In this document: positions 40,917-58,549 of the stretch, in pieces | Position numbering within the stretch: position 1 is the first letter of the stretch | Layout of the letters: every line of letters starts with the position of its first letter | Assembly: GCA_963786955.1 (NCBI GenBank) | Contig: CAWBAT010000003.1 | Coordinates: 96,001 to 160,000 of the forward strand | Direction: 5' to 3' | Source of the DNA: an uncultured Acidimicrobiia bacterium | GTDB lineage: Bacteria; Acidobacteriota; Terriglobia; Versatilivoradales; Versatilivoraceae | Length of the DNA: 64,000 nucleotides | The notes under the pieces: generated by a model | What the model saw: only the letters and a program-made list of their open reading frames with translations | Database searches by the model: none | Told to the model about the DNA's origin: nothing | Position numbers and translations under genes: made by a program

Positions 40917-41028
40917 CCCCTTTTTTGTACAGCTGCCCGTTGATGCACCTTCGGGGCGTCTGTGAAGATAACATTTAATTTACGATCAACACTCAGGCAT
41001 TATCTGCAATTACCCTCAAACATAGCAA

Positions 41029-41044
41029 TGGCTCGGTAATTGCT
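41029..41044 (+). promoter_or_regulatory. Sigma54 -24/-12 promoter of the etfB operon
   Basis: TGGCTCGGTAATTGCT versus consensus TGGCACG-N4-TTGCW. Confidence 0.75.
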
Positions 41045-41129
41045 CAGTTGATCGGTAAGGGGGAGTGTCCCAAGGAAAAATATCTACTATTACAATTTAA
41101 AAAACAGGAACCAGGAAGGAGGAAAAACG

Positions 41130-41915
41130 ATGAACATCGCCGTCCTTCTGAAACAGGTACCTGACCTGGTCGAAGAATTGGGAGTAGACGAATCCGGCAG
41201 GGGGCTTGACCACTCCTGGCTGAGATTTGTTCTCAATGAATTCGATGCTCACGCGTTGGAGCAGGCTCTTGTTGCTCAAAGAGCAACAGCGGCGGAGCAA
41301 TCGTGGTCTTTGCACTGAATAGAGGTGAAGTTGATGAAACCCTATTTGCAGCTTTAGCAAAAGGTGCCGATTCGGCAGTTAAGATAACCGGTGATTTCGA
41401 CGAAGGTCTAGACAGCCATACTGCCGGGCGTATCTTCCAATCCATCCTTGGTAGTACCACTTACGATCTTATCCTTACAGGTGTTCAAACTAATGACGAT
41501 GTAGACGGGCAAGTCGGAGGGATCCTGGCCGGATACCTCCATCTTCCCTATGTCAGTGTTGTCAGTGGCCTCCGCATTTCCGAGGACCACAAAGTGGCAA
41601 CGGTGCGCAAGGAATTTCCTGGCGGGCTTCTTTCTGAGATTGCGATAAGAATGCCAGCCGTAATAGGCATTCAGGCGGCCTCCCAACCGCCGCGCTATGT
41701 CCCGATTGCTCGGTTGCGGCAAATCATGAAAACAGGACACATCGAAGAAGTCGCTGCCGATGTCGCCCGTGCAAGCAAGGAAAGTTCCAGGATTCCAAAT
41801 TCGGCGAATGTTCAAGCCAGAGGTGACAGGTCGAGCGGAAATTATTTCAGGAAGTCACGACGTAATTGCTAACCGAATTATCGGCATCCTTGCGGAAAAA
41901 GGGATCGTGAGGTGA
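41130..41915 (+). CDS. etfB: Electron transfer flavoprotein beta subunit (frameshifted)
   Basis: LKQVPD, NEFDAHALEQA, ALAKGAD, DLILTGVQ, PPRY. Confidence 0.9.
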
Positions 41916-41918
41916 GGC

Positions 41919-42902
41919 ATGAATAGAGATATTTATGTGTATGCCGAATACCAGAAAGGACAACTAGCGGAGGTTACCTTTGAGATGCTAGGCAAGGGTC
42001 GACAGCTGGCTGATCTTGCGGGAGGGCGGCTTTTTGCCATGTTAGCGGGGAAGGGTGTGTCAAGCCTGGCCATGCAAATGGCAGCGGCCGATGGGGTGGT
42101 CTATCTCGAAGATGAGCGGCTTGCCAATTTCACTCCCGAGGCTTATCAAATTGCTCTTGCCGAACTGATCAGAGAGAGACAGCCTTGGTTAATCCTTTTC
42201 GGCTCGACCTCGATAGGATTGGATCTGGCCGCCTATCTGTCGGCAGAGCTCGGGATACCTTTCATCGCCTACTGCAAAGATCTGTGCCTCGAGGACGGAG
42301 TTCCCCTTGCGACAAGCCGGCTATTCGGGGGCAAGATGTTTGTCGAAATAGCCATTGAGCACGAACAGGCTGTCCTCTCTGTTCTCCCAGGCGCTTTTCC
42401 TGTCGAGCCGGGATTGACCACCACTACTCCCCAAGTCGAACAATTGAAGCCGACTGCTCTCGACCAGGAGTTGCGAACGCATTTTGTACGCTTCATCGAA
42501 CCCGAAAAAACCGATGTGGACATTACGGCAGTTCCCATATTGGTTTCTCTTGGGCGCGGAATTGAAGCTAAAGAAAATGTTGCATTGGCTCAGGAATTGG
42601 CGGACGAACTCGGCGGGGCCTTAGCGGCATCTCGGCCGGTTGTTGACCAAGGATGGCTACCGATGAGCCGGCAAGTGGGAAGGTCGGGAGTGATTGTCAA
42701 ACCGAGACTGTATCTTGCCTTGGGGATCAGTGGGGCCCCGGAGCATACAGAAGGAATGCGCGGCGCTGAGTTAATCATCGCCATCAACAAAGATCCCCAA
42801 GCGCCCATTTTCGAGATCGCTCACTACGGGGTGCACGGCAATGTGCTGGACCTCGTTCCGGCTTTAACGGATGCGATAAAGTGCAGAAAACTTGCAGCGT
42901 AG
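41919..42902 (+). CDS. etfA: Electron transfer flavoprotein alpha subunit
   Basis: GRGI, ASRPVVD, QVGRSG, GISGAPEH, AINKDPQAPIF. Confidence 0.93.
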   Translation: MNRDIYVYAEYQKGQLAEVTFEMLGKGRQLADLAGGRLFAMLAGKGVSSLAMQMAAADGVVYLEDERLANFTPEAYQIALAELIRERQPWLILFGSTSIGLDLAAYLSAELGIPFIAYCKDLCLEDGVPLATSRLFGGKMFVEIAIEHEQAVLSVLPGAFPVEPGLTTTTPQVEQLKPTALDQELRTHFVRFIEPEKTDVDITAVPILVSLGRGIEAKENVALAQELADELGGALAASRPVVDQGWLPMSRQVGRSGVIVKPRLYLALGISGAPEHTEGMRGAELIIAINKDPQAPIFEIAHYGVHGNVLDLVPALTDAIKCRKLAA

Positions 42903-42917
42903 CGAGGGGAGGGGACC

Positions 42918-44910
42918 ATGCATCCCTGCGTGCGCGAATACCTCTCAGTATCAGGAACAGTCTGGCTGTGGATCGCTTTTCTGACGTCGGCGGGGTTGTT
43001 CTCCTATCGGCTTGCTTTCTTTGTCCGCCTTCTGCAATTGGCGAGACAGGAAGATCGATCCAAACAGATTGTCACTCGACTCAAGATTTTTATTACAGAT
43101 GTATTTGTCCAGCCTAGACTCCGCGACGGCATGATCTGGCCGGCGCATCTTTTGATCTTCTGGGGGTTCTTACTTTTCGCGGCAGCCTTCGGATTCACCT
43201 TGTTCAAGGGGCTTTTCCCTTTTCTTCCCTATCCCTGGCCCGAAGATGTCGGCCCAGCCAATTTGATTCTTGAAGTAGGTGCGGTCTTCGTATTGATTGC
43301 GTTGGCGGTTGCCGCTTACCGGCGCTTTGTTGTGCGTCCGCCCGGAGTTAAGCAGACTCTGGATGCAGCCTTCATCCTCGTCTTGATAGGATTGCTGATG
43401 ATCACCTTTCTGTCAGCAGGAGCGTTCAAGAAACTTGGGGATGAAGACCAGGCTGCGATCTGGTCTCCGGTTTCGAGCACTTTGCTTTTTGGCTCAGCTA
43501 TTGGCAATGCCAGTAACTATGGCCTTCGCCCTCTCCGCTTGGATGTGGTGGGGACATGTTCTCCTCGTTTTGGGCTTTCTCGCTTACCTGCCATACTCAA
43601 AACACTTTCATCTGCTGGCTGCCCCCTTCAGCGTTTTCCTGACTGACCTGAACCCAAAGGGAAGGATGCTTCTTGAAGAGAGCCCGGATACAAATTTCGG
43701 AGAGCTTGGATTGAAGGATTTTACATGGCGAGAATTGATGTCTCCGCTGGCGTGTGCGGAATGCGGGCGGTGTGATCGAGTCTGCCCGGCATTCAACAGT
43801 GGCAGTCCCTTATCTCCACAAATTATCGTTCATCATCTGAAGGAACATCTATTGGAGGCCGGCCCCTTACTTTTGTCTAGACGCTCTAAATCGGAGTCTT
43901 TCCGTTCTCTTCTAGACGGAATTGTCTCCCCTGAAGAACTGCAGGCTTGTACTACTTGTTTGGCCTGCACGGAAAACTGTCCGGTTCGGAATGAACATCT
44001 TCCCTTGATCCTACGCATGCGCCGGCATTTAGTGGGGATGGGCAGGATTGAAGACAAAATTCAAGGTACCTTGGCGTATTTCAATCGTTACGGCAATTCT
44101 TTTGGAAAATCTGAGCGGATGCGGACTCAATGGACCCAGGGTCTGCCCTTCAAAATAAAAGATGCTCGAAAGGAGCCGGTGGAATACTTATGGTTTGTCG
44201 GGGATTATGCCTCCTACGATCCCCGGGCGCAAGGAGTCACGCGGACCGTGGCCCAGTTGTTTCACGCCGCCGGTCTGGATTTTGGCCTGCTGTATGAGGC
44301 GGAACGAAATTCTGGAAACGATCTCCGCCGGATTGGAGAAGAGGGGCTTTTTCAATTGATGGCGGAAAGGAACATTGCTTCTTTATCACGCTGCCAGTTC
44401 CACCGAATCGTCACTACAGACCCTCATACCTACAATACCCTTAAGAATGAATATTCTGACCTCGGAGCAAAGTATGAGGTCTGTCATTACACCGAATTGC
44501 TCTTCTCCGTGATTCGCGAAGGTCGCTTGGCCCTGAAGAGCAATGGGAAGTTGGCTGTGACTTATCATGATCCTTGCTACCTGGGCCGCTATAACGGAAT
44601 TTACGAAGAGCCTCGACAAGTTCTCAAGGCACTGGGTCATGAAATACTCGAAATGCCAAGAAACCGAAGTCAAGGGTATTGCTGCGGTGCCGGGGGAGGG
44701 CGGATCTGGGCGGAAGATAAAGGAAAGCTTACAGAACGGCCTGCGGAGAATCGTGTCCGAGAAGCAGCAACGCTCCAGGGAGTTCAAGTGATGGTTGTGA
44801 GTTGCCCTAAAGACCTCGTCATGTTTCAAGATGCAGCCAAAATTACGGGCAACGAAGGAAGGATTGCGATTAAAGATCTTGCTCAGCTGGTCTGGGAATA
44901 TGCGGCTTAA
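42918..44910 (+). CDS. Membrane-anchored FadF/EtfD-type Fe-S oxidoreductase (putative ETF:menaquinone oxidoreductase), frameshifted
   Basis: Cytochrome-b-like TM part (AHLLIFWGF, WWGH, YSKHFH), CAECGRCDRVCP, CTTCLACTENCP, CCG domain HDPC / CCGAGGG. Confidence 0.85.
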
Positions 44911-45039
44911 CGCACGATCTGAGGAAGTGTGTCCACTGAAAGTATTTTGAAAAGATTCTGCCGTGCCGGGGAATGAGAAATTGACAATGCTCGTTGCCTG
45001 CAACACAGGGATAAGCATTGTGGAATCAAGGAGGAATCG

Positions 45040-46256
45040 GTGATGCCCACGACCACGCATGAAGTCATTGAATCATTATGGGGCGTGACTCTCGATAAAC
45101 TCCATGAGACCGAAGAAGGCAGACGCATTCTGTCCTGTATTCAATGCGGTGTGTGTGCCGGGACATGCCCTTACGGAGAATACATGGACTGGCCCCCGCG
45201 TCGGATTATCAAGATGCTGCAGTCAGGCCAATTGGAAGAAGTCTTCCGGTCGGACAGCCTTTTGAAGTGTGTGAACTGTTATGCCTGCATGGAGAAGTGC
45301 CCGCGGAATATCCGATCTAACGGAAATACTTCTCCCGCTGATTAAGGAACAAACAGTCTTGCGTCTTCCCCATGTACCTGCAGAGTTGCAGAAAGCGGTT
45401 GAAAATAGCTTACCGTTATGGCAATCCGATGGGAGAGTCTGGAAGAAAGCGGGCGGCGTGGGTGAAGACAACAAGTGTGCCAGTTCGCATTCTGGCTCAA
45501 GATCCTCGACCCACAGACGTCCTTTGGTTTCTGGAGTCTGATCTTTCCTATCACCCCGGGGACAAGATACGGCACGGGCAACCGCTAGAGTTTTCCACGA
45601 CTTGGGTGTCGATTTCGCCATCTTGGGGCCTGAAGAAAAAAGTGCCGGCGACTGTGGCCGTTTGTCATGGGAAAAAGGGCTGTCTGAAGTCCTCATCGAA
45701 TACAACATGGCCATTTTTGCCAAATATCAGTTTAACCAGATCGTAACCTCTGATCCGCATGCTTTGGACGCTTTCCGATATCGATATACGATGTTTGGAT
45801 TCGACTACAAAGTGACTCACATCGTCCCCTACGTCTTCTCCCACATTGAACAGCTTAAACCATTGCTGAAAAAGAAACTGAATCACAGGGTGACCTATCA
45901 CGACTCCTGCTGTCTGGGACGTCATAATAGCATCTATACCGAGCCAAGAGCTTTGCTGCAAGCCATACCAGGCATTCAGCTGTCTGAGATGGTGCACAAC
46001 CGCAACAACACTCTCTGTTGCGGCGGCGGTGGGCGGCGGGATGTGGCTCGATGCGTATTATAAGTCCAAAGGGATGGATCGACTTTCGGATAGGCGGATT
46101 CAAGAGGCAATCGACACCGGCGCCGATGTGCTGGCCGTGGCCTGTCCATACGAGGTTTCCCGATTCGAGGACTCCCTGAAGGTAACAGGCTATGAGGGGA
46201 AGATGATTGTGCGCGACATTATGGAGCTTTTGGCTGAATCGATGGGAGGTGAGTAA
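45040..46256 (+). CDS. Soluble HdrD-like protein (HdrC-type di-cluster domain plus CCG domains), frameshifted
   Basis: CIQCGVCAGTCP, CVNCYACMEKCP, YHDSCCLGR, LCCGGGG, VACP. Confidence 0.8.
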
Positions 46257-46257
46257 T

Positions 46258-48246
46258 ATGGAAGTTGCGTACGATCCCATCCGCATCGGCTTTTACATCT
46301 GCCATTGTGGGACGAACATAGCAGGAGTAATAGACGTCAAAACAGTAACTCAATTCGCTTCCGGCTTGCCTCACGTTGTTGTGTCTCGTGATTACAAATA
46401 CATGTGTTCTGATCCCGGGCAGGAAATGATCCAACAGGATATTATGGATCATCGACTCACGCGCGTTGTCGTTGCTTCCTGTTCCCCTTTGCTTCATGAA
46501 TCGACTTTTCGGAATGCTATCGCAAAAGGAGGGCTGAACCCTTTCTATTTGCAGATGGTCAATATCCGCGAGCATGATTCCTGGGTCCACGAAAACCGCC
46601 AGTCAGCAACAGAGAAGGCAATGGATTTGACTCGTGCCGCCGTGCTGAGAGTGGCGCTTCATCAACCCCTCGAACGCAAGCGAGTGCCCATCCGTTCTGA
46701 TGCGCTTGTTGTTGGAGGGGGAATTGCCGGAATTCATGCGGCTTTGACAATTGCGAATGCCGGCAAGCACGTCTATTTAGTGGAGCGGGAACCGACCATC
46801 GGCGGACACATGGCCCAGTTCGACAAAACATTCCCGACACTGGACTGTGCCGCCTGCATCCTCACGCCGAAGATGACTGCTGTGAAGGCACATCCGAATA
46901 TCACGCTCTGGACGTACTCGGAAGTGATTCATGTCAAAGGCTTCGTTGGGGATTACCAGGTCACCGTGCGACACAAGCCGCGCTATGTTTTGGAAGATCT
47001 CTGTGTAGGCTGTTTGGAGTGTATTGAAGCTTGCGTCTACAAGGATGCGCGGTTTCCGGATGAATTCAATCTGGGGCTGGGAAGACGTAAGCCGATCTAT
47101 ATCCCTTTTCCTCAAGCCGTGCCTCAAGTGGCGGTGATTGACAGGGAAGCATGTATTCAATTTAAATCGGGCAAATGCAAGCAGACCTGCGTCGAGGCTT
47201 GTGGAGACCGCCATGCGATTGATTTTAAACAGGAGGAATCGACAGAGGAAGTCCAGGTAGGCTCCGTCATCCTGGCAACCGGGTTTCAAGTTTTCGATGC
47301 TCACCGGGTTTCCTACTATGGCTACGGAACCTATCCCAACGTGTACACCGCACTTGAGGTCGAGCGATTGGTCAATGCATCCGGACCGACTGGCGGTGAA
47401 GTAGTCCTGCGCGATGGACGAAAACCAAAGTCGGTTGCGATCATTCACTGTGTGGGGTCTCGAGACGAGAATACGAATCGCTGGTGCTCGCGTGTGTGCT
47501 GCATGTACTCGCTAAAGCTGGCCCATCTTCTTAAGGAGCGGACTGGGGCGGAAATCTATAATTTCTACATTGATATCCGGGCTCCAGGGAAGAGCATGGA
47601 GGAGTTTTATAATCGTGTCGCCGAGGAAGGGGTGCATTTTATCCGAGGAAAAGTGGCAGATGTTTATCCGGCCATTCCAAAGGAGACGAACCGGCTCATT
47701 GTTCAGGGAGAAGATACACTCATTGGAAGGATAGTAAAGATTCCGGTGGACATGGTTATTCTATCAGTAGGACTTGAGCCCCAACCTGATACACCCAAGG
47801 TTCGCCGGATGTTCAATGTCTGTTGTGCATCAGAAGGATTTTTCATGGAGCGCCACCCGAAGCTCGCTCCGGTGAACACCTTCACGGACGGCATCTTTCT
47901 GGCGGGTGCCTGCCAGGGACCGAAGGATATCCCGGACACTGTTGCACAGGCCGGAGCAGCTGCCAGTGAAGCTCTAGCCCTGATTGACGCGGGATACATG
48001 GAGCTAGAGCCAAATGCTGCCATAATTGTGGAAGAGGATTGTTCAGGCTGCAAATCATGCATCCCACTTTGCCCCTATTCTGCAATTGATTTTGTTGAGG
48101 AAACCAAGAAAGCCAGAGTTCAAGAAGCTCTCTGCAAAGGATGCGGTGTCTGCGTAGCCGCCTGTCCGTCTGGATCCATTCGGCAGCCCATGTTTGAGGA
48201 TGAAGAGATTTACACTGAAATCAGAGGAGTGCTGGCTGGCGTCTAA
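46258..48246 (+). CDS. hdrA: Heterodisulfide reductase subunit A, copy 1
   Basis: ICHCG.NI, YMCSDPG, GGGIAG, DKTFPTLDC, CVGSRD, CSRVCCMY.LK, GACQGPKDI, C-terminal ferredoxin. Confidence 0.93.
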   Translation: MEVAYDPIRIGFYICHCGTNIAGVIDVKTVTQFASGLPHVVVSRDYKYMCSDPGQEMIQQDIMDHRLTRVVVASCSPLLHESTFRNAIAKGGLNPFYLQMVNIREHDSWVHENRQSATEKAMDLTRAAVLRVALHQPLERKRVPIRSDALVVGGGIAGIHAALTIANAGKHVYLVEREPTIGGHMAQFDKTFPTLDCAACILTPKMTAVKAHPNITLWTYSEVIHVKGFVGDYQVTVRHKPRYVLEDLCVGCLECIEACVYKDARFPDEFNLGLGRRKPIYIPFPQAVPQVAVIDREACIQFKSGKCKQTCVEACGDRHAIDFKQEESTEEVQVGSVILATGFQVFDAHRVSYYGYGTYPNVYTALEVERLVNASGPTGGEVVLRDGRKPKSVAIIHCVGSRDENTNRWCSRVCCMYSLKLAHLLKERTGAEIYNFYIDIRAPGKSMEEFYNRVAEEGVHFIRGKVADVYPAIPKETNRLIVQGEDTLIGRIVKIPVDMVILSVGLEPQPDTPKVRRMFNVCCASEGFFMERHPKLAPVNTFTDGIFLAGACQGPKDIPDTVAQAGAAASEALALIDAGYMELEPNAAIIVEEDCSGCKSCIPLCPYSAIDFVEETKKARVQEALCKGCGVCVAACPSGSIRQPMFEDEEIYTEIRGVLAGV

Positions 48247-48436
48247 GGGTTATCATTCGTTTTTACCAGTTCTGGCCGAATGCTTCACGGTGGCTTTCAA
48301 TTTCATTGCCATCGCCGATGTTGAATATTTCTATATCCCCCCCCCAAGGGCGGGGGCTGTGTGCAAGATTCGAGGATAGAACTGTCCCTCTTTGTTTTTC
48401 TTGCTTTTTCTTTACTCGAACGAATTTCCCCCAAAT

Positions 48437-48455
48437 AAGGGTGAACTCACCCGCC
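48437..48455 (+). promoter_or_regulatory. Putative enhancer site for the hdrCBA-mvh operon
   Basis: AAGGGTGAACTCACCCGCC, 18/19 identical to 40898-40916 and 131 nt upstream of the sigma54 motif. Confidence 0.7.
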
Positions 48456-48567
48456 TCTACCTTCATTTCTAATTTCAAACCGTTTCAAAATTATCACCTT
48501 TCTACAGCTTCTTTTGTTTCTATCACCGTTTTGCTCTACTCCTGACCAACATCCGCAATATTTCGAA

Positions 48568-48583
48568 TGGCGCGGAAATTGCA
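48568..48583 (+). promoter_or_regulatory. Sigma54 -24/-12 promoter of the hdrC operon
   Basis: TGGCGCGGAAATTGCA. Confidence 0.75.
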
Positions 48584-48725
48584 GATTATGAGAAGAAGTC
48601 ATTAGAAAAAGTGGAGGATATCGCAATTTCAATTGGGGCAGGGCAAAGTTGAAGAAGAGTTGGACAATGATGAATTCTTCAGCATAACAAGCAGAGCAGG
48701 TTGACCGAGTGAGGAGTCAAACTCT

Positions 48726-49295
48726 ATGGAAAGAACGATCAAGTACCAACGCGATGTTGATCCGGAGTGGACGCATCAAGTCAACGAACGACCCGGATGT
48801 GAGAGTCTCTTGGCATGCATGCAATGCGGAACCTGTTCTGGCGCCTGTCCGCTTTCAATTTACATGGATCTTTCTCCGCGTCGGATCATGGCATTGGTTC
48901 GCGAAGGATTTCGGGCTGAAGCTTTGAAATCCCAAACCATCTGGCTGTGTGCTTCCTGTTATGCCTGCGGTGTACACTGTCCACAAAAGATCAAAATTAC
49001 GGATGTGATGTACAGCTTGAAGAGAGAGGCGATCTCTTCGGGTCTTTACCCCCGGCATTTCCCCATTCCTGTGTTGTCGAGCGAGTTTTACAAAATGGTG
49101 AAACAACGCGGGCGCAATGCCGAGTTTTGGCTTGTCCTCCAGATGGCCTTGCGTTCCCATCCTTTGATGTTACTCGGCATGGTGAATTCAGGCTGGCATC
49201 TATGGCGAACAGGCCGGCTTTTCATGCGTCGGGATCGGATCAATCGTATTACTGAACTACAGCGGGCCCTCGGTTTTACCAAGGAGGACAATTGA
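48726..49295 (+). CDS. hdrC: Heterodisulfide reductase subunit C
   Basis: CMQCGTCSGACP and WLCASCYACGVHCP. Confidence 0.9.
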   Translation: MERTIKYQRDVDPEWTHQVNERPGCESLLACMQCGTCSGACPLSIYMDLSPRRIMALVREGFRAEALKSQTIWLCASCYACGVHCPQKIKITDVMYSLKREAISSGLYPRHFPIPVLSSEFYKMVKQRGRNAEFWLVLQMALRSHPLMLLGMVNSGWHLWRTGRLFMRRDRINRITELQRALGFTKEDN

Positions 49296-50207
49296 ATGGA
49301 ATCCCCGAATCAAGGTTACCTGTACTATCCTGGCTGCACCTTGAAGGCAAGCGCAATTGCTTATGAGGAAAGCCTGCTTACCCTTTATCGTCTCTTGGGT
49401 GTGCCGATCAAGGAACTTGAGGACTGGAATTGTTGTGGTGCCACCTCGTATATGTCTATTGAGGAGAGTTCAGCCTTCATTTTAGCGGCGAGAAATCTCT
49501 CTCTGGCGCACCAGGAAGGCTACCGAGAATTGATGACGCCATGTTCCGCCTGCTACCTGATTCTGAAGAAAGCCCAGGATTATGTGCAACGTTATCCGGC
49601 CATTGGCCGTCAGGTGGGGGAGGCGCTCCATCGGGCGGGTTTGCCGCCGATGGACTCGGTTCAAGTCCGTCATCCCCTGGAAATACTTTACAACGACATT
49701 GGAGTGGAGCGGATACGCTCAAAGGTTGCGCGCCACTGGCAAGGGGGGAGGGTCGCATGCTATTACGGATGTCAGATTGTTCGACCTTATTCCGAGGTGG
49801 ATACTCCCTACAACCCCACACGAATGGATGAACTCCTTCAGGCAGTCGGGATTCCCACTGTAGATTTCCCCTTGAAAACTAAGTGCTGTGGGGGGTCTCT
49901 GACGGGGACGATTCACTCCGTCGGAGTACGTCTCAATTACATTCTTCTCAAGGAAGCTGTCCGAAAGGGTGCTCAGGCTATTGTTACAGTATGCGGGCTC
50001 TGCCAATTCAACCTGGATGCCTATCAGTCGGAAATTCGCGGCGAGGCGCACGAACAGTACAATATACCTGTTTTTTACCTGCCCCAGGTCCTCGGTTGGC
50101 AATTAGGGGGCGACTATCGCTCTCTCGGACTTCATAGGGCAATCTCCGGCAGGCATCTCATCAAGCAGTGGTTCTCTGCAGAGAAAGAGGTAGAGGCATA
50201 TGTTTGA
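49296..50207 (+). CDS. hdrB: Heterodisulfide reductase subunit B
   Basis: YYPGC, WNCCG, CSAC, YYGC, KCCGG, CGLCQFNLD. Confidence 0.92.
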   Translation: MESPNQGYLYYPGCTLKASAIAYEESLLTLYRLLGVPIKELEDWNCCGATSYMSIEESSAFILAARNLSLAHQEGYRELMTPCSACYLILKKAQDYVQRYPAIGRQVGEALHRAGLPPMDSVQVRHPLEILYNDIGVERIRSKVARHWQGGRVACYYGCQIVRPYSEVDTPYNPTRMDELLQAVGIPTVDFPLKTKCCGGSLTGTIHSVGVRLNYILLKEAVRKGAQAIVTVCGLCQFNLDAYQSEIRGEAHEQYNIPVFYLPQVLGWQLGGDYRSLGLHRAISGRHLIKQWFSAEKEVEAYV

Positions 50208-52194
50208 AAATAATGGTCGGGCTCGGATTGGATTCTACATCTGTCATTGCGGCAGCAATATTGCAGGAATCGTCGATGTCAAATCTGTTGCGGAATATGT
50301 CGCCACACTGCCTGGCGTCGTCATTTCCAGAGACTATAAGTACATGTGTTCCGATCCCGGACAGGAACTCATCATACAGGATATCGAAGACAATGATCTG
50401 AACCGGATTGTGGTTGCTTCCTGTTCACCTCTTCTGCATGAGCACACTTTCCGAAAGGCAACGGCACGAGCCGGTTTGAATCCCTATTTTCTTCAGATGG
50501 TCAACATTCGCGAGCACGACTCTTGGGTCCATAGTGATAAGGCGAAAGCGACTACCAAAGCCAAAGATTTGGCTCGGGCGGCGGTCCGGCGGGTCGCCTC
50601 GCACAAACCCCTGGAGCAAAAAAGGGTACCCATCCATCCCAAAGTCCTGGTCCTCGGCGGCGGAATAGCTGGAATTCATGCCGCGTTGACATTGGCGGAT
50701 GCGGGAAAACATGTCTATCTCGTCGAGCGAGAGCCCAGCATTGGTGGGCACATGGCTCAGTTTGACAAGACTTTCCCAACTCTGGACTGTGCGGCTTGCA
50801 TCTTGACACCAAAGATGAGTGCGGTACGCGCTCATCCTAATATCACTTTATGGACCTACTCGGAAGTATCCCGGGTGGAAGGTTATGTCGGAAATTTCAA
50901 GGTGACCGTGACCCGCAACCCTCGCTACGTAAAAGAAGAGTTATGTGTCGGATGCCTGGAATGTGTTGAGGCCTGTGTCTATAAGGAAGCTCGATTTGTA
51001 GACGAGTTCAATGTCGGACTAGGGAAACGGAAACCGATCTATATTCCTTTCCCTCAGGCCACCCCGCAGATGGTGCTCATCGACCGTGAAGCTTGCATTC
51101 AATTCAAATCAGGAAAATGCAAGAAAACATGTGTGGAAGCGTGCGCGGATCGCAAAGCGATCGACTTTGGGCAACAGGAAAGGATCGAAGAGATCGAGGT
51201 GGGTGCCATTATTGTCGCCACGGGATTTCAAACCTTTGATGCACGCCGGATACCGTATTACGGTTATGGGACGAATCCTAGCGTTTACACGGCGCTGGAA
51301 ATTGAACGGCTGGTAAATGCCTCTGGCCCTACAGGTGGTGAAGTCATTCTTCGAGACGGAAGCCATCCCAAGGCCGTCGGAATCATCCATTGTGTGGGAT
51401 CGAGAGATGAAAACACCAATCGATGGTGCTCACGTGTCTGCTGCATGTACTCGTTGAAACTGGCGCACCTGATCAAAGAGCATACCGATGCAGAAGTATT
51501 CAACTTCTACATTGATATCCGTACGCCGGGGAAAGGATTTGAAGAGTTCTACCAAAAGCTGCGCAATGAAGGGGTGCATTTCATCCGGGGGCGTGTGGCG
51601 GAAGTTACGGATTGGGCGCTAGACCCATCTGAAGAGGGCAAAGCCGTCATCCGTGTAGAAGATACCTTGACGGGATTTGTTCGCAGAATTCCCGTCGATA
51701 TGGTGGTGTTAGCGGTAGGGCTAGAACCCCAAGCCGACTCCCAGGAAGTACGTCGTTTGTTCAACATCAGCTGTTCTACAGAAGGGTTCTTCCTGGAACG
51801 CCATCCTAAGCTTGCGCCAGTCAATACTTTTACCGATGGCATTTTCATAGCAGGTGCCTGTCAGGGGCCGAAAGATATTCCAGATACTGTAGCCCAAGCT
51901 GGAGCCGCTGCCGGGGAGGCCCTAGCCTTGATTGATCGGGGTTTCATGGAACTGGAACCCAATACAGCCTACATCGTCGAAGAAGACTGCTCCGGCTGTA
52001 AGTCGTGTATACCCCTCTGCTCCTATAACGCGATTACTTTTGTAGAGGAAAAGAACAAGGCTGCCATTCAAGAGGCTCTGTGCAAAGGATGCGGCACCTG
52101 TGTTGCGGCGTGCCCGTCGGGCTCCATTCGACAACATCTTTTCGAAGACGAGGAGATCTATGGGGAGATTGAAGGGATACTAACTCCGGTGTAG
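50200..52194 (+). CDS. hdrA: Heterodisulfide reductase subunit A, copy 2
   Basis: Same motif set as copy 1. Overlaps the hdrB stop. Confidence 0.93.
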   Translation: MFENNGRARIGFYICHCGSNIAGIVDVKSVAEYVATLPGVVISRDYKYMCSDPGQELIIQDIEDNDLNRIVVASCSPLLHEHTFRKATARAGLNPYFLQMVNIREHDSWVHSDKAKATTKAKDLARAAVRRVASHKPLEQKRVPIHPKVLVLGGGIAGIHAALTLADAGKHVYLVEREPSIGGHMAQFDKTFPTLDCAACILTPKMSAVRAHPNITLWTYSEVSRVEGYVGNFKVTVTRNPRYVKEELCVGCLECVEACVYKEARFVDEFNVGLGKRKPIYIPFPQATPQMVLIDREACIQFKSGKCKKTCVEACADRKAIDFGQQERIEEIEVGAIIVATGFQTFDARRIPYYGYGTNPSVYTALEIERLVNASGPTGGEVILRDGSHPKAVGIIHCVGSRDENTNRWCSRVCCMYSLKLAHLIKEHTDAEVFNFYIDIRTPGKGFEEFYQKLRNEGVHFIRGRVAEVTDWALDPSEEGKAVIRVEDTLTGFVRRIPVDMVVLAVGLEPQADSQEVRRLFNISCSTEGFFLERHPKLAPVNTFTDGIFIAGACQGPKDIPDTVAQAGAAAGEALALIDRGFMELEPNTAYIVEEDCSGCKSCIPLCSYNAITFVEEKNKAAIQEALCKGCGTCVAACPSGSIRQHLFEDEEIYGEIEGILTPV

Positions 52195-52333
52195 CGGAAT
52201 ATCAGAGCCAAGCTCGCCGAGCTCGAGCATGCATGAATTCAAAGTGGTGTCCGGATCGATGAGTCTTACAAAACCAGCAAGGAGATTAGCCATAGATCGT
52301 CATTAGAGACGAGTTGAAAGAGTCGAGGCCTCA

Positions 52334-52819
52334 ATGAACACATACGCATTGATCCAAGAATTTCTGGACCAAAAAAAATCGCGATGGTCGGGGTTTCCCG
52401 GGACCCGAAGCATTTCAGCCGCAAGCTGTTTAGGACACTGAGTGAGCGCGGTCATGCCATGCTGCCGGTGAATCCGAGTGCCCTAGAAATCGACGGGATT
52501 CATTGTTATCCGAGTATCGAAGCGATCCCCTTCCCAGTGAAGTGTGCCTTGTTGATGACCCCTCGGAAGGTAACCGATCATGTCGTGGAAGAGTGTGCCT
52601 CGGCCGGAAGCGACTTGGTTTGGATCTATGGGATCTCAGGGCCAAAACAGGTCAGTGCCCACACACTCAGGATTTGTGAACAGCATGGATCTAGGGGTTA
52701 TTCCGGGGTATTGCCCGTATATGTTCCTTGGTAATGGTGCGTTTTTCCATCGTCTCCATGGATTCGTCTTGAAGGCGACAGGGAAATATCCGAAATTAGG
52801 AATGCCGATGAGGACATAG
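52334..52819 (+). CDS. CoA-binding protein (YccU-like), frameshifted
   Basis: IAMVGVSRDP..FS, PVNP, CYPSI, C-terminal CPYMF...LHG. Confidence 0.8.
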
Positions 52820-52929
52820 CCCAAAATTGCTCTATGACCCGTCAGAAATGGATGAAGAGCGGAAAGGAAACACATAAGCTCATAAAGTGAGCCCGCGTTA
52901 CAAGGTGGCAATAGGAGGCCCAGATATGG

Positions 52930-53439
52930 ATGAGAAAGCGAAGGCGGATACCGAAAAGGGCGAGAGAGTGGGAACCACGTATCGTGGCATTTTTTTGTAA
53001 CTGGTGCACTTACACGGCTGCTGATTTGGCTGGAGTCTCGAGAATGCGTCATGCTCCCAACGCACGTGTCATCCGTGTCATGTGTTCCGGGCGAGTCGAT
53101 CCTCAATTTATTCTGGACGCATTTGCCCGAGGCGCCGACGGAGTGCTGATCGGTGGCTGCCATCCGGGTGATTGCCATTATGCGGAGGGCAATTACAAGA
53201 CTTTACGGCGGTTTCAGCTCTTGAAGCGTCTGGTAAAAGACATGGGGATCGAAGAAGATCGCCTTCGCCTCGAGTGGATTTCCGCTTCCGAAGGCGAGAA
53301 GGTAAAGATCGTCATCAACGACTTGGTCGAGAAGGTTCGCCTTTTGGGGCCTCTTGCGATGCCCCATCAGTTCGAGACCTGGGATGAGGAACTACAGTCT
53401 ATTGCGGGAGAGGAAACGGAGGTGAGCACTCATGTCTGA
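52930..53439 (+). CDS. mvhD: Hydrogenase iron-sulfur subunit MvhD/FlpD
   Basis: FCNWCTY.AAD, MCSGRVD, GGCHPGDCHY, WISASEG. True start probably 52926. Confidence 0.93.
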   Translation: MRKRRRIPKRAREWEPRIVAFFCNWCTYTAADLAGVSRMRHAPNARVIRVMCSGRVDPQFILDAFARGADGVLIGGCHPGDCHYAEGNYKTLRRFQLLKRLVKDMGIEEDRLRLEWISASEGEKVKIVINDLVEKVRLLGPLAMPHQFETWDEELQSIAGEETEVSTHV

Positions 53440-54398
53440 GAAGCCCAAAGTTGCTTTTTACTGGTGCGCTTCTTGTGGCGGCTGTGAGGAGTCAATCGTT
53501 GATCTTGGCTGAAGACCTTCTCGAGGTGGTCGGAGCAATAGAGATTGTTCTCTGGCCGGTGGCAATGGACTTCAAAAAACATGATATTGAAGGGATGCCC
53601 GACTCTTCGATCCTGGCAGCTTTGGTTAACGGCAGCATCCGGACTTCAGAGCAGGAAGAGATGGCACGGCTATTGCGTCGCAAGAGCAAGATTCTCGTGG
53701 CCTATGGATCCTGTGCCCAATTAGGCGGTATTCCCAGTTTGGCAAACCAGTTTGGTAAGGAGCAAATCCTGGAGTACGTTTATCAACAATCACCCTCGGT
53801 CGTGAACGAATCTAAGCTGTTTCCCCAAAGGGAAACTCAAGTCAACGGCTTCAATGCAATACTTCCCCGGTTCCACACTCTCGTTCGTTCCTTGGACCAG
53901 ATCGTCGAAGTGGATTATTATCTCCCGGGCTGCCCTCCGACACCTAAATTGATTAAGCAAGCCTTGACAACTCTTCTTTCCGGCGATGCTCCTCCCAAAG
54001 GGACTGTTTTGGCGCCTGACGTCGCTCTTTGTGAGGAATGCGCCAGGAAATCATCGAAGCCTACCGACTTGCACTTCTCTCGTTTCAAACGCCCGCATGA
54101 AATCATGATTGATCCGGACAAATGTTTGCTGGCACAAGGGGTCTTATGTATGGGCCCTGCAACTCGAGGAGGATGTGAAGCGCTTTGTGTGCAGGGAAAC
54201 ATGCCTTGCACGGGCTGTTTTGGCCCTACGTCACGGGTCCGAGACCAAGGTGCTAAAATGCTTTCAAGCCTGGCCTCCTCTGTTGACGCCAAAGAGAAAA
54301 AGGAAATTGACGAGATTCTTGCGGGGATCCCGGATCCTGTTGGGAGTTTCTATCGATATGGTATGGCAAAGTCCTTGCTTAGAGGCAAATTAAATTGA
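53432..54398 (+). CDS. mvhG: F420-non-reducing [NiFe]-hydrogenase small subunit (frameshift near 53505)
   Basis: WCASCGGC, GSCA, PGCPP, CEEC, CMGP.T..GC.A.C, PCTGCFG. Confidence 0.9.
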
Positions 54399-54501
54399 TC
54401 GGGAAATAAAGAAGAATTTCAACTTATTAAGTTGCGACTGAGTGCGCCAGAGTCGCCGGGACGTTTTAAGGAAACTATTGGAAGGCGTTGGAGGTAGAGA
54501 G

Positions 54502-56052
54502 ATGGATGAAAGTATTCGCACCGTTTGGAGCGAAGCCCAGAAAAAGGCAAATGCGAGCTACATGCAAACTCGCCGAATCACGATTGATCCCATTACACGG
54601 CTGGAAGGACATGGGAAGATCGACATTTTTTTGGATGATCAAGGTGAGGTGGAGAAGGCTTATTTTCAAGTACCGGAACTTCGAGGGTTTGAGGTGTTCA
54701 GTATTGGACGTCCGGCTGAAGACATGCCACAGATTACAAGTCGTATCTGTGGGGTCTGTCCCACTGCTCATCATATGGCGGCTACCAAAGCCCTGGACGA
54801 TCTTTATAAGGTCGAACCTCCTCCTGCAGCGAAGAAAATACGGGAGCTAGTTTATAGTACATTCATGTTGGAGGACCATGCTCTCCATGTGTATTTGCTG
54901 GGAGGGCCGGATTTTATTGTCGGCCCGGATGCTCCTCGCGAACTCAGAAACGTACTGGGGGTTATTGATAAAGTGGGACTTGAAACTGGCAAGAAGGTCA
55001 TCAGCATGCGCCGCCGATTACGCGAACTCATCACCTACGTCGGCGGAAAGGTGATTCATCCGGTTCTTGGCTTGCCGGGAGGGGTCGCCAAGGGGATCAC
55101 CTCTGATGAGCTCCCTCGATTCCAGCAACTCGCAAAAGACGGCCTGGAGTTTGCTCTTTTCACTCTCCAGGTTTTCAAAGACATTGTCCTAAAGAACAAG
55201 GACTATGTGAATCTCATTTCTTCAGATATCTATACTCACAACACTTATTATATGGGCCAAGTGGATGAATCCAACCGGGTAAATTTCTACGACGGGATGC
55301 TAAGAGTCGTAGACCCCAATGGCGTGGAGTTTGTCAAATTTCGAGCGCAAGACTATCTGAATCAGATTGCGGAACGCGTTGAAACATGGAGTTATGTGAA
55401 GTTTTGTTATCTCAAATCAGTGGGTTGGCATGGCTTTACTGATGGAAAAGAAAGCGGAATCTACTGTGTGGCCCCGTTGGCGAGATTGAATGCGTCCGTG
55501 GGAATGGCTACTGCAAAAGCACAACAGGCTTATGAGGAATTTTACACAACTTTAGGAGGCAAACCCGTTCAGCACACCTTGGCAAATCATTGGGCAAGGA
55601 TCGTCGAAATGATTTATGCAGCAGAAAGAATGAACGAATTGCTCAATGATCGCGAAATCACTAGCAAAGACCTTCGAGTGATCCCCACCATGACTCCCAC
55701 CTCGGGGATTGGTGTTGTAGAAGCTCCTCGCGGCACACTCTTCCATCATTATGAGACCGATGACAATGGAATCATCCGGAAAGCAAACTTGATCGTTGCA
55801 ACGCAAAACAACTCTGCCCGGATGGCCATGAGCGTTGAAAAAGCAGCCAAAGGTGTCATTCATCATGGTGAAGTTTCTGAAGGGTTGTTAAATCGAATCG
55901 AGATGGCATTTCGAGCCTATGATCCCTGCCACGCTTGTGCCACTCACTCCCTTCCAGGAAACATGCCGCTCATCGTACGGGTGCGTGATCAAAGGGGTGA
56001 AACGTTGAGCATCCTGCAACGCGATCCGGACGGAAAGATATCCAGGAGTTAA
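54502..56052 (+). CDS. mvhA: Group 3c [NiFe]-hydrogenase large subunit
   Basis: TRLEGHG, ELRGFE, L1 SRICGVCP, EAPRG, L2 RAYDPCHACATH plus a cleavable C-terminal tail. mvhD/hdr context. Confidence 0.92.
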   Translation: MDESIRTVWSEAQKKANASYMQTRRITIDPITRLEGHGKIDIFLDDQGEVEKAYFQVPELRGFEVFSIGRPAEDMPQITSRICGVCPTAHHMAATKALDDLYKVEPPPAAKKIRELVYSTFMLEDHALHVYLLGGPDFIVGPDAPRELRNVLGVIDKVGLETGKKVISMRRRLRELITYVGGKVIHPVLGLPGGVAKGITSDELPRFQQLAKDGLEFALFTLQVFKDIVLKNKDYVNLISSDIYTHNTYYMGQVDESNRVNFYDGMLRVVDPNGVEFVKFRAQDYLNQIAERVETWSYVKFCYLKSVGWHGFTDGKESGIYCVAPLARLNASVGMATAKAQQAYEEFYTTLGGKPVQHTLANHWARIVEMIYAAERMNELLNDREITSKDLRVIPTMTPTSGIGVVEAPRGTLFHHYETDDNGIIRKANLIVATQNNSARMAMSVEKAAKGVIHHGEVSEGLLNRIEMAFRAYDPCHACATHSLPGNMPLIVRVRDQRGETLSILQRDPDGKISRS

Positions 56053-56361
56053 TGGATCCATCCTTCAATGAGAAAAATCAAGTCGCATTCGTATGGTTAT
56101 GGAAGACCTTGGAAACACAATCCCTGTTTATTCCTCCAACCCCTCTCTTTAACGGAAAGGGTCGTTCGCCAGACGGCAGACCGGGTGACCTCGACTCGAC
56201 GTGTCTGTCTATTTGCAACTTGGTACAAAACCCGGAGACAGAGAGAAGATCTCTGAGAATCAAGATTCAATATCGAGGAATAGAGGCGTCATTTCGCTCC
56301 ACCGGTTTTTGTAAGAGTAGAAGGGGAGCGACTGCCCTATGCCTGTATCAAATATGGAAAT

Positions 56362-56844
56362 ATGGGAATGATACCGAAAATTCTAGTTTTGGGACTGGGA
56401 AACGAGCTCCTGAGTGACGATGGAGTTGGAATTAAAGCTGCCCGAGCTCTGCGAGAAGAGCTTCAGTCCCAGGTCGATGTCATCGAATGTTCTGAATCCG
56501 GTTTATCCCTGTTGGATGTTCTGGAGGGATATGAGCGAGTCCTGCTCCTCGATGCGATTTTAACCGGCCAACACCCCCCCGGAACCGTCTTAGAGTTTTG
56601 CGCGCAAGATTTTCCTGATACGGTCATCCTTTCACCCCACTCCGCTGGGATTCCAGAACTCCTCCAACTGGCCAAAAGGCTGGGAATCCACTTTCCTGAA
56701 AAACTGTACATCCTTGCCATAGAGGTAGAAAATCTGTTTGAACTGGGGGAAAAGTTGACCCCAGCGGTGGAAGCCGCTCTCCCTGAATTTATTTCCAAGG
56801 GAAAGGAACTCATAGGCAGGCTGGAATGCCACACTACCCGCTGA
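56362..56844 (+). CDS. Hydrogenase maturation protease
   Basis: GLGNELLSDDGVG, LLDA, SPH. Confidence 0.92.
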   Translation: MGMIPKILVLGLGNELLSDDGVGIKAARALREELQSQVDVIECSESGLSLLDVLEGYERVLLLDAILTGQHPPGTVLEFCAQDFPDTVILSPHSAGIPELLQLAKRLGIHFPEKLYILAIEVENLFELGEKLTPAVEAALPEFISKGKELIGRLECHTTR

Positions 56845-56897
56845 CTGCCGACCTTTCGCCATAGGGATTCAGGTGATTTGAACAGGAGAGTAAACCC

Positions 56898-58523
56898 ATG
56901 ATGACCGTTGCTGAACTCATCATCGCGGATGCCCATGCCCGAGGACTGCGTCATTTCTTTGGCCTTCCAGGCGGCGGTTTCCCGTTGGATATGATGGAGG
57001 CGGGGCGAAGGTTTGGAGTTGACTTTGTGTCGACGAGCCACGAATCTTCTGCAGCGATAATGGCTGCTTACTATGGAGTGTTGAAGCAGACTGCGGGCCT
57101 GGCGCTATCGGTCAGAGGTGTAGGGGCCGGAAACCTGCTGGGTGGAGTCGTCAATGCGCATTTTGAACGCGTTCCTGTCGTGGCGGTGTGCGAAACCGTT
57201 CCAACATCGATGGCGGCTTATCCATCAATTCAATACTGCGACCAGTTAAGCTGTTATCAGGGGATTTGCAAATATGCCGCTGCTGTCTCGAAAGAGGACG
57301 CAGCTGCTCAAATACAAGCATCTGTCTATCATTCATTGGAAGGCCGGCCAGGCCCGACTTTGTTAAATGTTCCGGCAGATCTCAATCAAACGGCTTGGGA
57401 TGCTCCTCTCTCATCCAAGCCCGTCGCTTCTCCTTCTCCTGCTAGTTCTGCCCAAATCGCTTTAGCCCGAACCTTTCTTGGTGAAAAAAAACGTCTAGTT
57501 GTAATTGCCGGTGCTGATGTGATTCGCGCCGGTGCCACTGAGGAGCTCCGCGAGCTGGTGGAGTCGTTAGAGGCGGTGGTCCTCGTAACAATGGATGCCC
57601 GCGGGGTTTTCCATGAACGGCATCGTCGCTGGGCGGGAGTGCTGGTGGGTTCGTTTAACCCCAATATTATTGAGTCGAAAGTATTGGCCAAAGCCGATGG
57701 CGTGCTCGTAGTGGGTGCAGATGCCATGATGACCCACGCTGCTTGGAATGTTAACCTGCCTGTCTGCGAGCTGTCTGCCCGATCTGAATATGCTGCTCTC
57801 TCGGTCCACCCCGAATTGCGAGTTGACGGCGAGCTCAGAAGTTCATTACGGGCCATGGGGGATCTTAATCAGCAGGGGTTTCCTTTAGAAGAGATTCAAG
57901 CATTGCGCCGCGACATTTTGTTTTACTTCAAACGGCCCGGGCAGGCTCGCTTGGCTGCTCAGGATGTCATTGAGATTGTGCGGCGCATTCTTCCACCCGA
58001 AGGGATTCTTTTTTCGGAAACGGGCGCCTTTGTCTGTATGCTCGAGCACATTTGGTCGGTTGAACACCCAGGCACCTATTACGGAACTTCCGGAGGCCGC
58101 ACCATGGGTCTCATGTTGCCCGCGATCCTTGGAGCCCGGCTGGCAGAGCAGAAACGGCCCATGGTCGGGATTGGTGCCGATGGGAGTTTGTTGATGAGAC
58201 TCGGTGAATTGGAGGTCCTCAAGCGTTCGGGGGTGGCCGTTCCTCTTGTAATCCTGAATGACCAGGCTCTCGGCACCATGAAATCTCGCCAGAAATCTCG
58301 CGGCATGCCAGATTACGGTCTCGATTTTTCACCAGTGGACTTTGCCGCTATTGCCCGGGCCTGTGGCCTCCAGGGTGTCCAGGTAGACTGCCCGGAGGCC
58401 TTGGAGAAGGAACTGCAGCGAGCGATGGTTTCTTCAACCTCGACTTTGATTGATGCTCGAGTAGATTCTCAAATCTATCAGGACAGCTTTGGGCCTGCAA
58501 TCGGGGTCTTGAGTCCAAATTAG
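56898..58523 (+). CDS. Thiamine pyrophosphate-binding enzyme (acetolactate synthase-like family)
   Basis: FGLPGG, HESSAAIMA, GRPGP, TMG, ADGS..ND TPP motif. Confidence 0.85.
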   Translation: MMTVAELIIADAHARGLRHFFGLPGGGFPLDMMEAGRRFGVDFVSTSHESSAAIMAAYYGVLKQTAGLALSVRGVGAGNLLGGVVNAHFERVPVVAVCETVPTSMAAYPSIQYCDQLSCYQGICKYAAAVSKEDAAAQIQASVYHSLEGRPGPTLLNVPADLNQTAWDAPLSSKPVASPSPASSAQIALARTFLGEKKRLVVIAGADVIRAGATEELRELVESLEAVVLVTMDARGVFHERHRRWAGVLVGSFNPNIIESKVLAKADGVLVVGADAMMTHAAWNVNLPVCELSARSEYAALSVHPELRVDGELRSSLRAMGDLNQQGFPLEEIQALRRDILFYFKRPGQARLAAQDVIEIVRRILPPEGILFSETGAFVCMLEHIWSVEHPGTYYGTSGGRTMGLMLPAILGARLAEQKRPMVGIGADGSLLMRLGELEVLKRSGVAVPLVILNDQALGTMKSRQKSRGMPDYGLDFSPVDFAAIARACGLQGVQVDCPEALEKELQRAMVSSTSTLIDARVDSQIYQDSFGPAIGVLSPN

Positions 58524-58549
58524 TGACAGGCGCATCCATGTCTTTTGCT

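Follow-up and report, generated by a model that had tools for sequence, protein, structure and literature searches.

Described systems and the locus

The closest described relatives of the gene cluster reported here are the H2:heterodisulfide/ferredoxin complex of methanogens, MvhAGD-HdrABC (PDB 5ODC/5ODH); the membrane oxidoreductase encoded with electron transfer flavoprotein (ETF), called EtfD in mycobacteria (PDB 9ojn, PMC13083937), EMO in Syntrophus and HdrF in Desulfobacterium autotrophicum (PMC2702500); the NADH-linked FlxABCD-HdrABC of Desulfovibrio (PMC6687939); and the NADH-dependent EtfABCX/FixABCX (PDB 7koe). We analysed a 64,000-nt window (positions 96,001 to 160,000 of contig CAWBAT010000003.1, assembly GCA_963786955.1) from an uncultured soil or wetland acidobacterium, in which an island of 13 genes (41130-56844, all on the + strand) combines ETF, an EtfD-type protein and an HdrD-like protein with two HdrA paralogs, HdrB, HdrC and the [NiFe]-hydrogenase MvhAGD. 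Our reading, to which we assign a probability of about 0.55, is that the island encodes two flavin-bifurcating modules built on HdrA, both most likely served by the single encoded group 3c [NiFe]-hydrogenase, and that one of them passes electrons from H2 to ferredoxin and, by way of ETF, to menaquinone.

The likeness to the methanogen complex is extensive. HdrA is full-length (residues 9-660 of the first paralog, HdrA1, align end to end with residues 4-650 of HdrA 5odc_A at 717 bits, in the domain order of the solved protein), MvhA matches 5odc_F at 349 bits, and the locus also encodes MvhD, MvhG, an HdrB with two full CCG domains, HdrC and a maturation protease. In contrast to the methanogen system, the host is a bacterium, no DsrC was found in its genome (genes for synthesis of coenzymes M and B were not searched for), two HdrA paralogs are encoded with one MvhD, a CoA_binding_2 gene lies in the operon, and a second branch has HdrD, ETF and EtfD instead of HdrBC.

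EtfD is proposed to take electrons from ETF and to reduce menaquinone, and its CCG clusters are described as fully coordinated, solvent-shielded and non-catalytic (PMC13083937). The island shares with the EtfAB-EtfD/EMO/HdrF systems the gene order etfB-etfA-etfD and a transmembrane (TM) domain followed by 2x[4Fe-4S] and a CCG domain; an intact ortholog from a genome of the same class but another family (G033) matches 9ojn_A at 261 bits. It differs in that the G033-type protein has 682 aa rather than 1042 aa, no acyl-CoA dehydrogenase gene is adjacent, a soluble HdrD paralog and HdrA follow and, in other genomes, a group 3c hydrogenase is encoded in the same operon. FlxABCD-HdrABC resembles the locus as a bacterial HdrA system that has an MvhD-like connector and an exchanged electron-input module, whereas here the input would be H2 through MvhGA and one output branch HdrD-ETF rather than HdrBC. 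EtfABCX/FixABCX offers a parallel in which ETF gives one electron to a quinone reductase while ferredoxin gets the other, and EtfA matches 7koe_B at 168 bits; unlike that system, the locus has no FixC (ETF-QO) or FixX gene but an EtfD-type quinone reductase, and the bifurcating flavin is likely to reside in HdrA.

A resident hydrogenase operon and a separate ETF cassette

The island was delimited by Pfam searches, open reading frames (ORFs) and three-frame reading, and was compared with two genomes of the same genus (G002 and G001) and with G033. By blastn, window positions 39000-40915 align to G002 at 85% and positions 48708-58603 at 84%, and the two segments are directly adjacent in G002. 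The intervening stretch (40916-48428, etfB to hdrA1) has no counterpart there; a galT-like gene runs straight into hdrC. The extra genes are bracketed by a 26-nt direct repeat. Its left copy, with the imperfect palindrome GGGTGAAGTCACCC (40890-40915), lies just 3' of the galT-like gene and aligns with the one copy present between the genes in G002; its right copy (48429-48454) is 23/26 identical to the left, and past it the window matches the region upstream of G002 hdrC again. Because this duplicated site, single in G002, brackets the etfB-etfA-etfD-hdrD-hdrA1 block, we recognise the block as a 7,539-bp (7.5-kb) cassette. The island is thus composite, a resident hdrCBA2-mvhDGA operon plus a separate ETF cassette. 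The repeat is not a genome-wide repetitive extragenic palindromic (REP) element: just two copies exist in the 5.65-Mb genome, even with up to 5 substitutions allowed.

The cassette opens with etfB (41130-41915; Pfam ETF), which is frame-shifted, followed by an intact etfA of 327 aa (41919-42902; Pfam ETF and ETF_alpha), by etfD (42918-44910; Pfam Fer4 and CCG), encoding the membrane oxidoreductase, and by a gene for a soluble HdrD-like protein with HdrC-like 2x[4Fe-4S] and two CCG domains (45040-46256; Pfam Fer4_17 and CCG on fragments). It closes with an intact hdrA1 (46258-48246), the start of which overlaps the hdrD stop region. A non-coding spacer of 480 nt with no ORF (48247-48725) separates the cassette from hdrC; patches of its right part are 83-95% identical to the G002 hdrC upstream region. 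In the cassette tail 3' of hdrA1, a run of nine C followed by its G-rich complement forms a hairpin-like sequence (48337-48360).

The resident operon is common to the window genome and G002 (84% nucleotide identity). It comprises hdrC (48726-49295; Pfam Fer4_8/Fer4_17; 91% identical to G002), hdrB with two full CCG domains (49296-50207; Pfam CCG twice), an intact hdrA2 (50200-52194), a gene for a CoA_binding_2 protein (52334-52819; PF13380; the intact G002 ortholog has 171 aa), mvhD (52930-53439; Pfam FlpD), the small-subunit gene mvhG, in which no Tat-type leader was seen (53432-54398; Oxidored_q6), the large-subunit gene mvhA (54502-56052) and a HycI-type maturation protease (56362-56844; Pfam HycI). 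MvhA is 93% identical to that of G002 and 79% to that of G033. A scan of 40400-58700 for promoters and terminators did not rise above chance (10 promoter-like sequences against 15.2 expected, 21 terminator-like against 18.5).

An original prediction, made from the letters of the window, had drawn the island from exactly its first start to its last stop and had named its components correctly, as Pfam confirms: ETF, a FadF/EMO-type oxidoreductase, HdrD-HdrA and HdrABC-MvhDGA, although the genes called HdrABC run in the order hdrC-hdrB-hdrA. Its view of the locus as one island, apparently co-regulated, needs amending. The genes are indeed contiguous, but the ETF half is a separate repeat-flanked cassette that is absent in G002 and that stops short of hdrC by the length of the spacer. 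The absence of mcr, dsr and acyl-CoA dehydrogenase genes from the island, which it had claimed, is upheld by Pfam; one acyl-CoA dehydrogenase gene lies 9 kb upstream (31339-32487), and G002, without the cassette, has it too. The prediction of a probable acidobacterium also fits: G033 is ranked in the same class, and a record titled 'Terriglobia bacterium' has an HdrD 96% identical to that of G033. The window further encodes a 1110-aa outer-membrane beta-barrel protein with CarboxypepD_reg and Plug domains (22708-26040), which fits the assignment. Such proteins are abundant in Acidobacteriota.

Trees fit either insertion of the cassette in the window genome or its loss in G002. The base composition of the cassette shows no contrast with its flanks, and no mvhD remnant follows hdrA1 (tblastn with MvhD matched only 52969-53436). 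An EtfD-type match is absent from both congeners, and soluble HdrD orthologs occur in two of the 41 relatives searched (G000 and G033). At the corresponding site in G001, a sigma factor gene and the galT-like gene are followed, after ~350 nt, by an Ldh_2-family gene, without the island and without the thiamine pyrophosphate (TPP)-enzyme gene. In one metagenome contig (X4, ~92% identical), position 40634 is followed by 191 other letters and then by 56872, which links the galT-like gene to the TPP-enzyme gene; the whole 16.2-kb island is thus missing from it. The place 3' of the galT-like gene is a variable site, a hotspot with nested accessory modules. Elsewhere in the window, the ORF at 11934-12629 carries a partial IS200-like Y1 transposase domain.

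The ETF-HdrD-HdrA-Mvh linkage in other genomes

Scanning species-representative genomes with G033 HdrD gave 32 loci, which were mapped by tblastn. HdrD in these loci is 57-96% identical to G033 HdrD, with the exception of a distant match at 34% in L059. In 30 of the 32, etfB, etfA or etfD adjoins hdrD, the exceptions being L059 and L041, where the contig is cut 263 nt after hdrD; hdrA is present in 20 and mvh genes in 17, and several of the remaining loci stop at the edge of their contig. Record titles place the 32 loci in ~12 phyla, two of them archaeal: Terriglobia and other Acidobacteriota, Thermodesulfovibrionales, Bacteroidota, Chlorobiaceae, Ignavibacteriota, Gemmatimonadota, Verrucomicrobia, Anaerolineae, Zixibacteria, Eisenbacteria, Thermoplasmatota and Methanofastidiosia.

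G033 holds a single tight operon, mvhD-mvhG-mvhA-protease-etfB-etfA-etfD-hdrD-hdrA, without hdrB or hdrC, in which EtfD, HdrD and HdrA have 682, 414 and 685 aa. Among the loci, the order etfBA-etfD-hdrD-hdrA-mvhDGA is found in L029, L031, L056 and L057, and with an insert in L035; the order hdrD-etfBA-etfD-hdrA-mvhDGA in L037, L040, L042, L044, L046, L048, L054 and L058, and in L050 with etfD upstream on the other strand. In L032, L034, L053 and L055 the order is hdrC-hdrB-etfBA-etfD-hdrD with no adjacent hdrA, and L030 is similar, with hdrB at the contig edge. L037 (Bryobacterales) resembles the window: hdrCBA lies directly upstream of hdrD-etfBA-etfD-hdrA-mvhDGA. The linkage of ETF, EtfD and HdrD with HdrA and Mvh is no accident, and the functional link between the two halves that the original prediction had proposed gains the backing of synteny conserved across many phyla. 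Because identity is high across phyla and presence is patchy among close relatives, the data indicate that a functional unit has spread horizontally. In seven related loci whose flanks were annotated, the flank ORFs scanned (46 of 74) included no acyl-CoA dehydrogenase, which makes ETF look like a carrier internal to the module.

Several loci hold additional genes. In the Chlorobiaceae-labelled L032 (15600-19863) and L053 (11217-20917), two-component sensor genes lie 5' of hdrC-hdrB-etfBA-etfD-hdrD, and a truncated HdrA-like flavoprotein and an [FeFe]-hydrogenase-like protein lie 3' of it; DRTGG and HATPase_c_2 are annotated in L032 only, while in L053 NuoF-like and Fer2_4/Fer4 proteins follow as well and hdrA-mvhD lies 8 kb downstream. 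This set may be an [FeFe]-hydrogenase-linked version of the module. In G033 a second pair of [NiFe]-hydrogenase small and large subunits (259 and 450 aa) lies directly upstream of mvhD, and within ~15 kb of the operon there are also a large-subunit-like gene of 572 aa and two further maturation proteases. In L035 (Ignavibacteriota) hdrA and mvhD are separated by another, divergent set of etfD-etfA-etfB genes (30-33% identical), which lies on the opposite strand (13388-17544), and in L056 (Eisenbacteria) hdrC- and hdrB-like genes are located between mvhG and mvhA of the ETF-linked operon (13997-15384).

The hydrogenase, the HdrA paralogs and HdrBC

The MvhA motifs ICGVCPTAH and AYDPCHACATH agree with the L1 (ICGxCxxxH) and L2 (AYDPCxxCATH) motifs of group 3c [NiFe]-hydrogenases (PMC6085437). 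The genomic context agrees as well, with mvhD (FlpD, 179 bits) and mvhG (68 bits) beside mvhA and hdrA2 directly upstream. It is motifs and MvhD/MvhG/HdrA context that speak for the subgroup, not the sequence match alone, the best PDB matches being 7t2r_D (381 bits), 9sfi_g (355), MvhA 5odc_F (349) and the NAD-reducing 5xf9_D (319). The group 3c hydrogenase on which the original prediction depended is thus borne out in the features tested. MvhD (FlpD) has one match in the whole genome. The genome encodes three [NiFe] large subunits and, for maturation, HypD (C4:836274-837317) in addition to the adjacent HycI protease.

The two HdrA proteins are 75% identical and belong to different lineages. 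HdrA2 pairs in the tree with the HdrA of G002 (support 100) and with the hdrCBA-linked HdrA of L037 (89), while HdrA1 groups with ETF-linked HdrAs, nearest to L029 (88). The MvhAs of the window and of G002 branch within the ETF-linked MvhAs, with G033 and L029 as their neighbours (92, 95). HdrA1 and the resident MvhA share L029 and G033 as nearest relatives.

HdrB carries 11 cysteines in two complete CCG motifs (14, 46, 47, 83 and 86; 155, 159, 197, 198, 233 and 236), and HdrC has 2x[4Fe-4S] (Fer4_8/Fer4_17), as expected of an HdrABC. Neither DsrC (PF04358) nor dsrA (TIGR02064) gave a match in the genome, which is 93% complete, and on this ground the locus is not a DsrC-linked module, a possibility that the original prediction had left for checking. 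Of the known disulfide substrates of HdrABC, CoM-S-S-CoB and DsrC, the latter was thus not found; synthesis genes for coenzymes M and B were outside the search.

ETF, EtfD and the HdrD-like protein

The window etfD, encoded after etfBA, is 58% identical to its G033 ortholog, which has five predicted TM helices; in the window, hydropathy gives three peaks in the N-terminal fragment and two, overlapping, in the next. An N-terminal TM region, 2x[4Fe-4S] and a CCG domain together make up the EtfD architecture. The genome has a second ETF pair (C6:417037-418272; two pairs in total), five acyl-CoA dehydrogenase genes, and futalosine-type menaquinone genes.

The pieces of hdrD, in three frames, are 54-76% identical to G033 HdrD. 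The best solved match of HdrD is not an HdrBC but mycobacterial EtfD, 9ojn_A (162 bits, residues 80-411); HdrC follows at 52 bits, over the ferredoxin part only. Across 30 HdrD orthologs the eight cubane-cluster cysteines (two motifs) are invariant, whereas the first CCG domain retains three invariant cysteines and the second five, the pattern of the second being unlike that of window HdrB with its 5 + 6 cysteines. The protein therefore does not have the two complete CCG domains of HdrD, the catalytic subunit of HdrDE, and by sequence it is nearer to the EtfD relay domain than to HdrBC. A structure prediction of G033 EtfA, EtfB and HdrD as a complex scored 0.79 against 0.73 for a control in which EtfA was replaced; it does not discriminate and is not used either way.

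Frame shifts in the assembly

Five genes of the island (etfB, etfD, hdrD, the CoA-binding gene and mvhG) are frame-shifted in the assembly, as seen by three-frame reading and by tblastn with intact orthologs. The frame of etfB changes twice, near 41274-41279 and at ~41750-41800; relative to G033 EtfB, residues 1-48 lie in one frame, 50-209 in another and the C-terminal 44 residues in a third. There is one change in etfD, between 43481 and 43543, seen as two one-letter gaps, and there are four in hdrD (near 45300, 45375, 45556 and 46030) and two in the CoA-binding gene (52372, in an A-run, and 52691). In mvhG, one extra letter at 53505 separates the N-terminal CxxC motif from the rest. A single change, at 40454, affects the flanking galT-like gene.

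We regard these shifts as most likely assembly errors, for two reasons. The first is that contigs of close strains, from public short-read runs aligned to the region, carry the additional letters: one from X4 at 40454, restoring the galT-like frame; one from X1 (depth 2) at 43481 and 43507, restoring etfD; and one from X3 (370 nt, 98% identical, with 6 other differences) at 45556, restoring the frame of hdrD there. Other pieces of the cassette are matched with 0-1 differences (X3, 43169-43319; X4, 43011-43261; X1, 47707-47857). Twelve public DNA runs share words with the region, each 5-10% of them, and no RNA run was among the matches. The second reason is that other genes are split in the same manner. 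Elsewhere in the window Beta_elim_lyase, URO-D, DUF4010, ABC_tran, Aldedh, BPD_transp_2 and galT-like genes are truncated or split (for example at 4335-5138, 16499-17347, 17466-18435, 26467-27635, 28412-29533, 39665-40647 and 60934-62276), and G002 has splits of its own, in a phosphonate-binding protein, the TPP enzyme and the MvhD C-terminus. The splits across the window suggest that indel errors occur throughout the assembly, at a few per 10 kb. With 5.65 Mb in 9 contigs, the assembly looks like those made from long reads. Long-read assemblies are prone to indels.

A model for electron flow

From the gene content, the cassette borders, the conserved synteny and the sequence relationships we infer which complexes form, in which direction electrons flow, what accepts them, and that both HdrAs share MvhAGD. 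The first module, MvhAGD-HdrA2-HdrBC, would be a bacterial copy of the methanogen complex and would act on a disulfide. The second would consist of the cassette products: EtfAB, the EtfD-type quinone reductase, HdrD and HdrA1. On this branch H2 would be oxidised at MvhA and the electrons would pass through MvhG and MvhD to the flavin adenine dinucleotide of HdrA1, where they would be split. The low-potential electron would go to ferredoxin, and the high-potential electron to HdrD, standing in the place of HdrBC, and from there through the ETF flavin and EtfD to menaquinone. No thiol or disulfide would be required, and the chain should be able to run in reverse, with reduced ETF and reduced ferredoxin yielding H2. 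The standard potentials are ~-414 mV for H2, ~-450 to -500 mV for ferredoxin and ~-74 mV for menaquinone, and for this reason the sum of the branch would be exergonic, and reversible at low H2.

A number of observations weigh against this reading. In this genome the ETF module lies outside the mvh operon, upstream of the spacer and hdrCBA2, and the use of MvhAGD by HdrA1 is therefore deduced from other genomes. For H2-to-quinone transfer the genome is already equipped with another enzyme, a group-1-like uptake hydrogenase (573 aa, a full-length PF00374 match, typical of membrane uptake enzymes). The ETF subunits disagree: bifurcating ETFs rank first for EtfA (best solved relatives 5ol2_A, 6fah_A and 4kpu_A; 193-168 against 144-117 bits), while the canonical, non-bifurcating 1o94_C ranks first for EtfB (92 against 68-54 bits). 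The type of ETF is thus ambiguous; if it were bifurcating, NADH would be indicated as an additional partner. HdrBC-like genes stand beside ETF-HdrD in ten of the 32 loci (L030, L032, L034, L037, L045, L047, L053, L055, L056 and L054, the last doubtful because its hdrC label overlies the N-terminal part of a split hdrD), and a disulfide may still take part. Finally, the cassette has more frame shifts for its length (7-8 in 7.1 kb, ~1.1/kb) than the shared flanks (4 in 9.1 kb, ~0.4/kb) and could be decaying, and the contigs that restore frames have depths of 2-6 and may come from other strains.

If the ETF/EtfD half and the Hdr/Mvh half were coupled instead by a diffusible thiol/disulfide, perhaps based on coenzyme A (CoA), then HdrBC and HdrD would both reduce the couple, which would be re-oxidised towards the quinone pool. 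HdrB, with both full CCG motifs, looks catalytic, the failure to find DsrC or dsrA leaves room for another substrate of HdrBC, a CoA_binding_2 gene sits between hdrA2 and mvhD in the window as in G002, and the ten loci with HdrBC-like neighbours would suit such a couple. We nevertheless consider it unlikely. The one-operon loci G033, L029, L031, L040 and L046 have neither hdrB nor hdrC, and the ETF-HdrD-HdrA-Mvh set therefore works without HdrBC; moreover, HdrD has its closest relative in the non-catalytic EtfD relay domain, and cysteines have been lost from the first CCG domain of HdrD. It is because HdrD resembles this domain more than HdrBC that we favour an ETF branch free of disulfides. 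The thiol/disulfide of the original prediction accordingly becomes unnecessary on that branch (162 against 52 bits, and three cysteines in the first CCG domain) and is possible for the HdrBC branch. The hint of CoA or a CoA-disulfide that the prediction drew from the embedded gene is weakened: tblastn finds CoA_binding_2 in G002 only, in none of the 32 related loci and not in the G033 stretches examined.

A different objection is that the cassette is a decaying horizontal acquisition in this genome, with etfB, etfD and hdrD as pseudogenes and only MvhAGD-HdrA2BC at work, a state that can coexist with the general model. The frame changes in three of the five cassette genes, their density, the absence of the cassette from both congeners and the rarity of HdrD among relatives (two of 41) speak for decay, which we judge improbable all the same. 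All localised breaks are small frame shifts, a number of which fall at runs of G/C or A/T, and the fragments still match orthologs at 47-76% identity (tblastn); near-identical short-read contigs from other samples open the frames at three sites; resident genes (galT-like, CoA-binding, mvhG) and many others in the window are broken likewise; and the assembly is long-read-like. The excess of shifts in the cassette is modest, and either lower coverage of a cassette carried by part of the population or early decay would fit. That the halves are altogether independent, EtfAB-EtfD being an ordinary route from acyl-CoA to menaquinone (as for syntroph EMO and mycobacterial EtfD) that landed in an insertion hotspot by a hydrogenase operon, strikes us as very improbable indeed. 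The variable site after the galT-like gene is real, as G001 and the contig lacking the island attest, and acyl-CoA dehydrogenase genes are at hand, one of them 9 kb upstream. However, the cassette brings its own hdrD and hdrA1, superfluous for an ETF:quinone route, the same five genes share one operon with mvhDGA in G033 and many other loci, the genome has its separate second ETF pair, and the upstream acyl-CoA dehydrogenase gene is equally present in G002, which is without the cassette.

Implications

The component families are textbook; their combination is conserved and widespread. No description of an etfBA-etfD-hdrD-hdrA-mvhDGA cluster was found in the full-text literature searched, although a review of HdrA modules may cover such clusters. 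Three features are new: membrane EtfD belongs to the cluster regularly, a duplicated 26-nt site bounds the cassette, and a full HdrBC branch stands alongside on a single MvhD. Tentatively, and as something we would put no higher than a working idea, etfBA-etfD-hdrD-hdrA-mvhDGA could represent an undescribed, disulfide-free class of HdrA bifurcase spanning cytoplasm and membrane, which interconverts H2 with ferredoxin and menaquinone, so that in the reverse direction quinol or ETF, together with ferredoxin, would yield H2; the two HdrA paralogs might then share one MvhAGD or heterodimerise on it, providing a switch between thiol and quinone acceptors. Soil and wetland anaerobes of a dozen phyla would in that case have a direct junction of H2, ferredoxin and quinone.

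The electron acceptor of bacterial MvhADG-HdrA in organisms that lack both methanogenesis and DsrC is a long-standing question. The conserved gene set names a concrete chain of acceptors, from HdrD to ETF to EtfD to menaquinone, and the locus shows the module moving as a cassette. If the model is true, HdrA-type bifurcation would be widened from disulfides to flavoprotein and quinone acceptors, and H2, ferredoxin and the respiratory quinone pool would be linked in abundant uncultured wetland and soil lineages that are important for the turnover of H2 and carbon.

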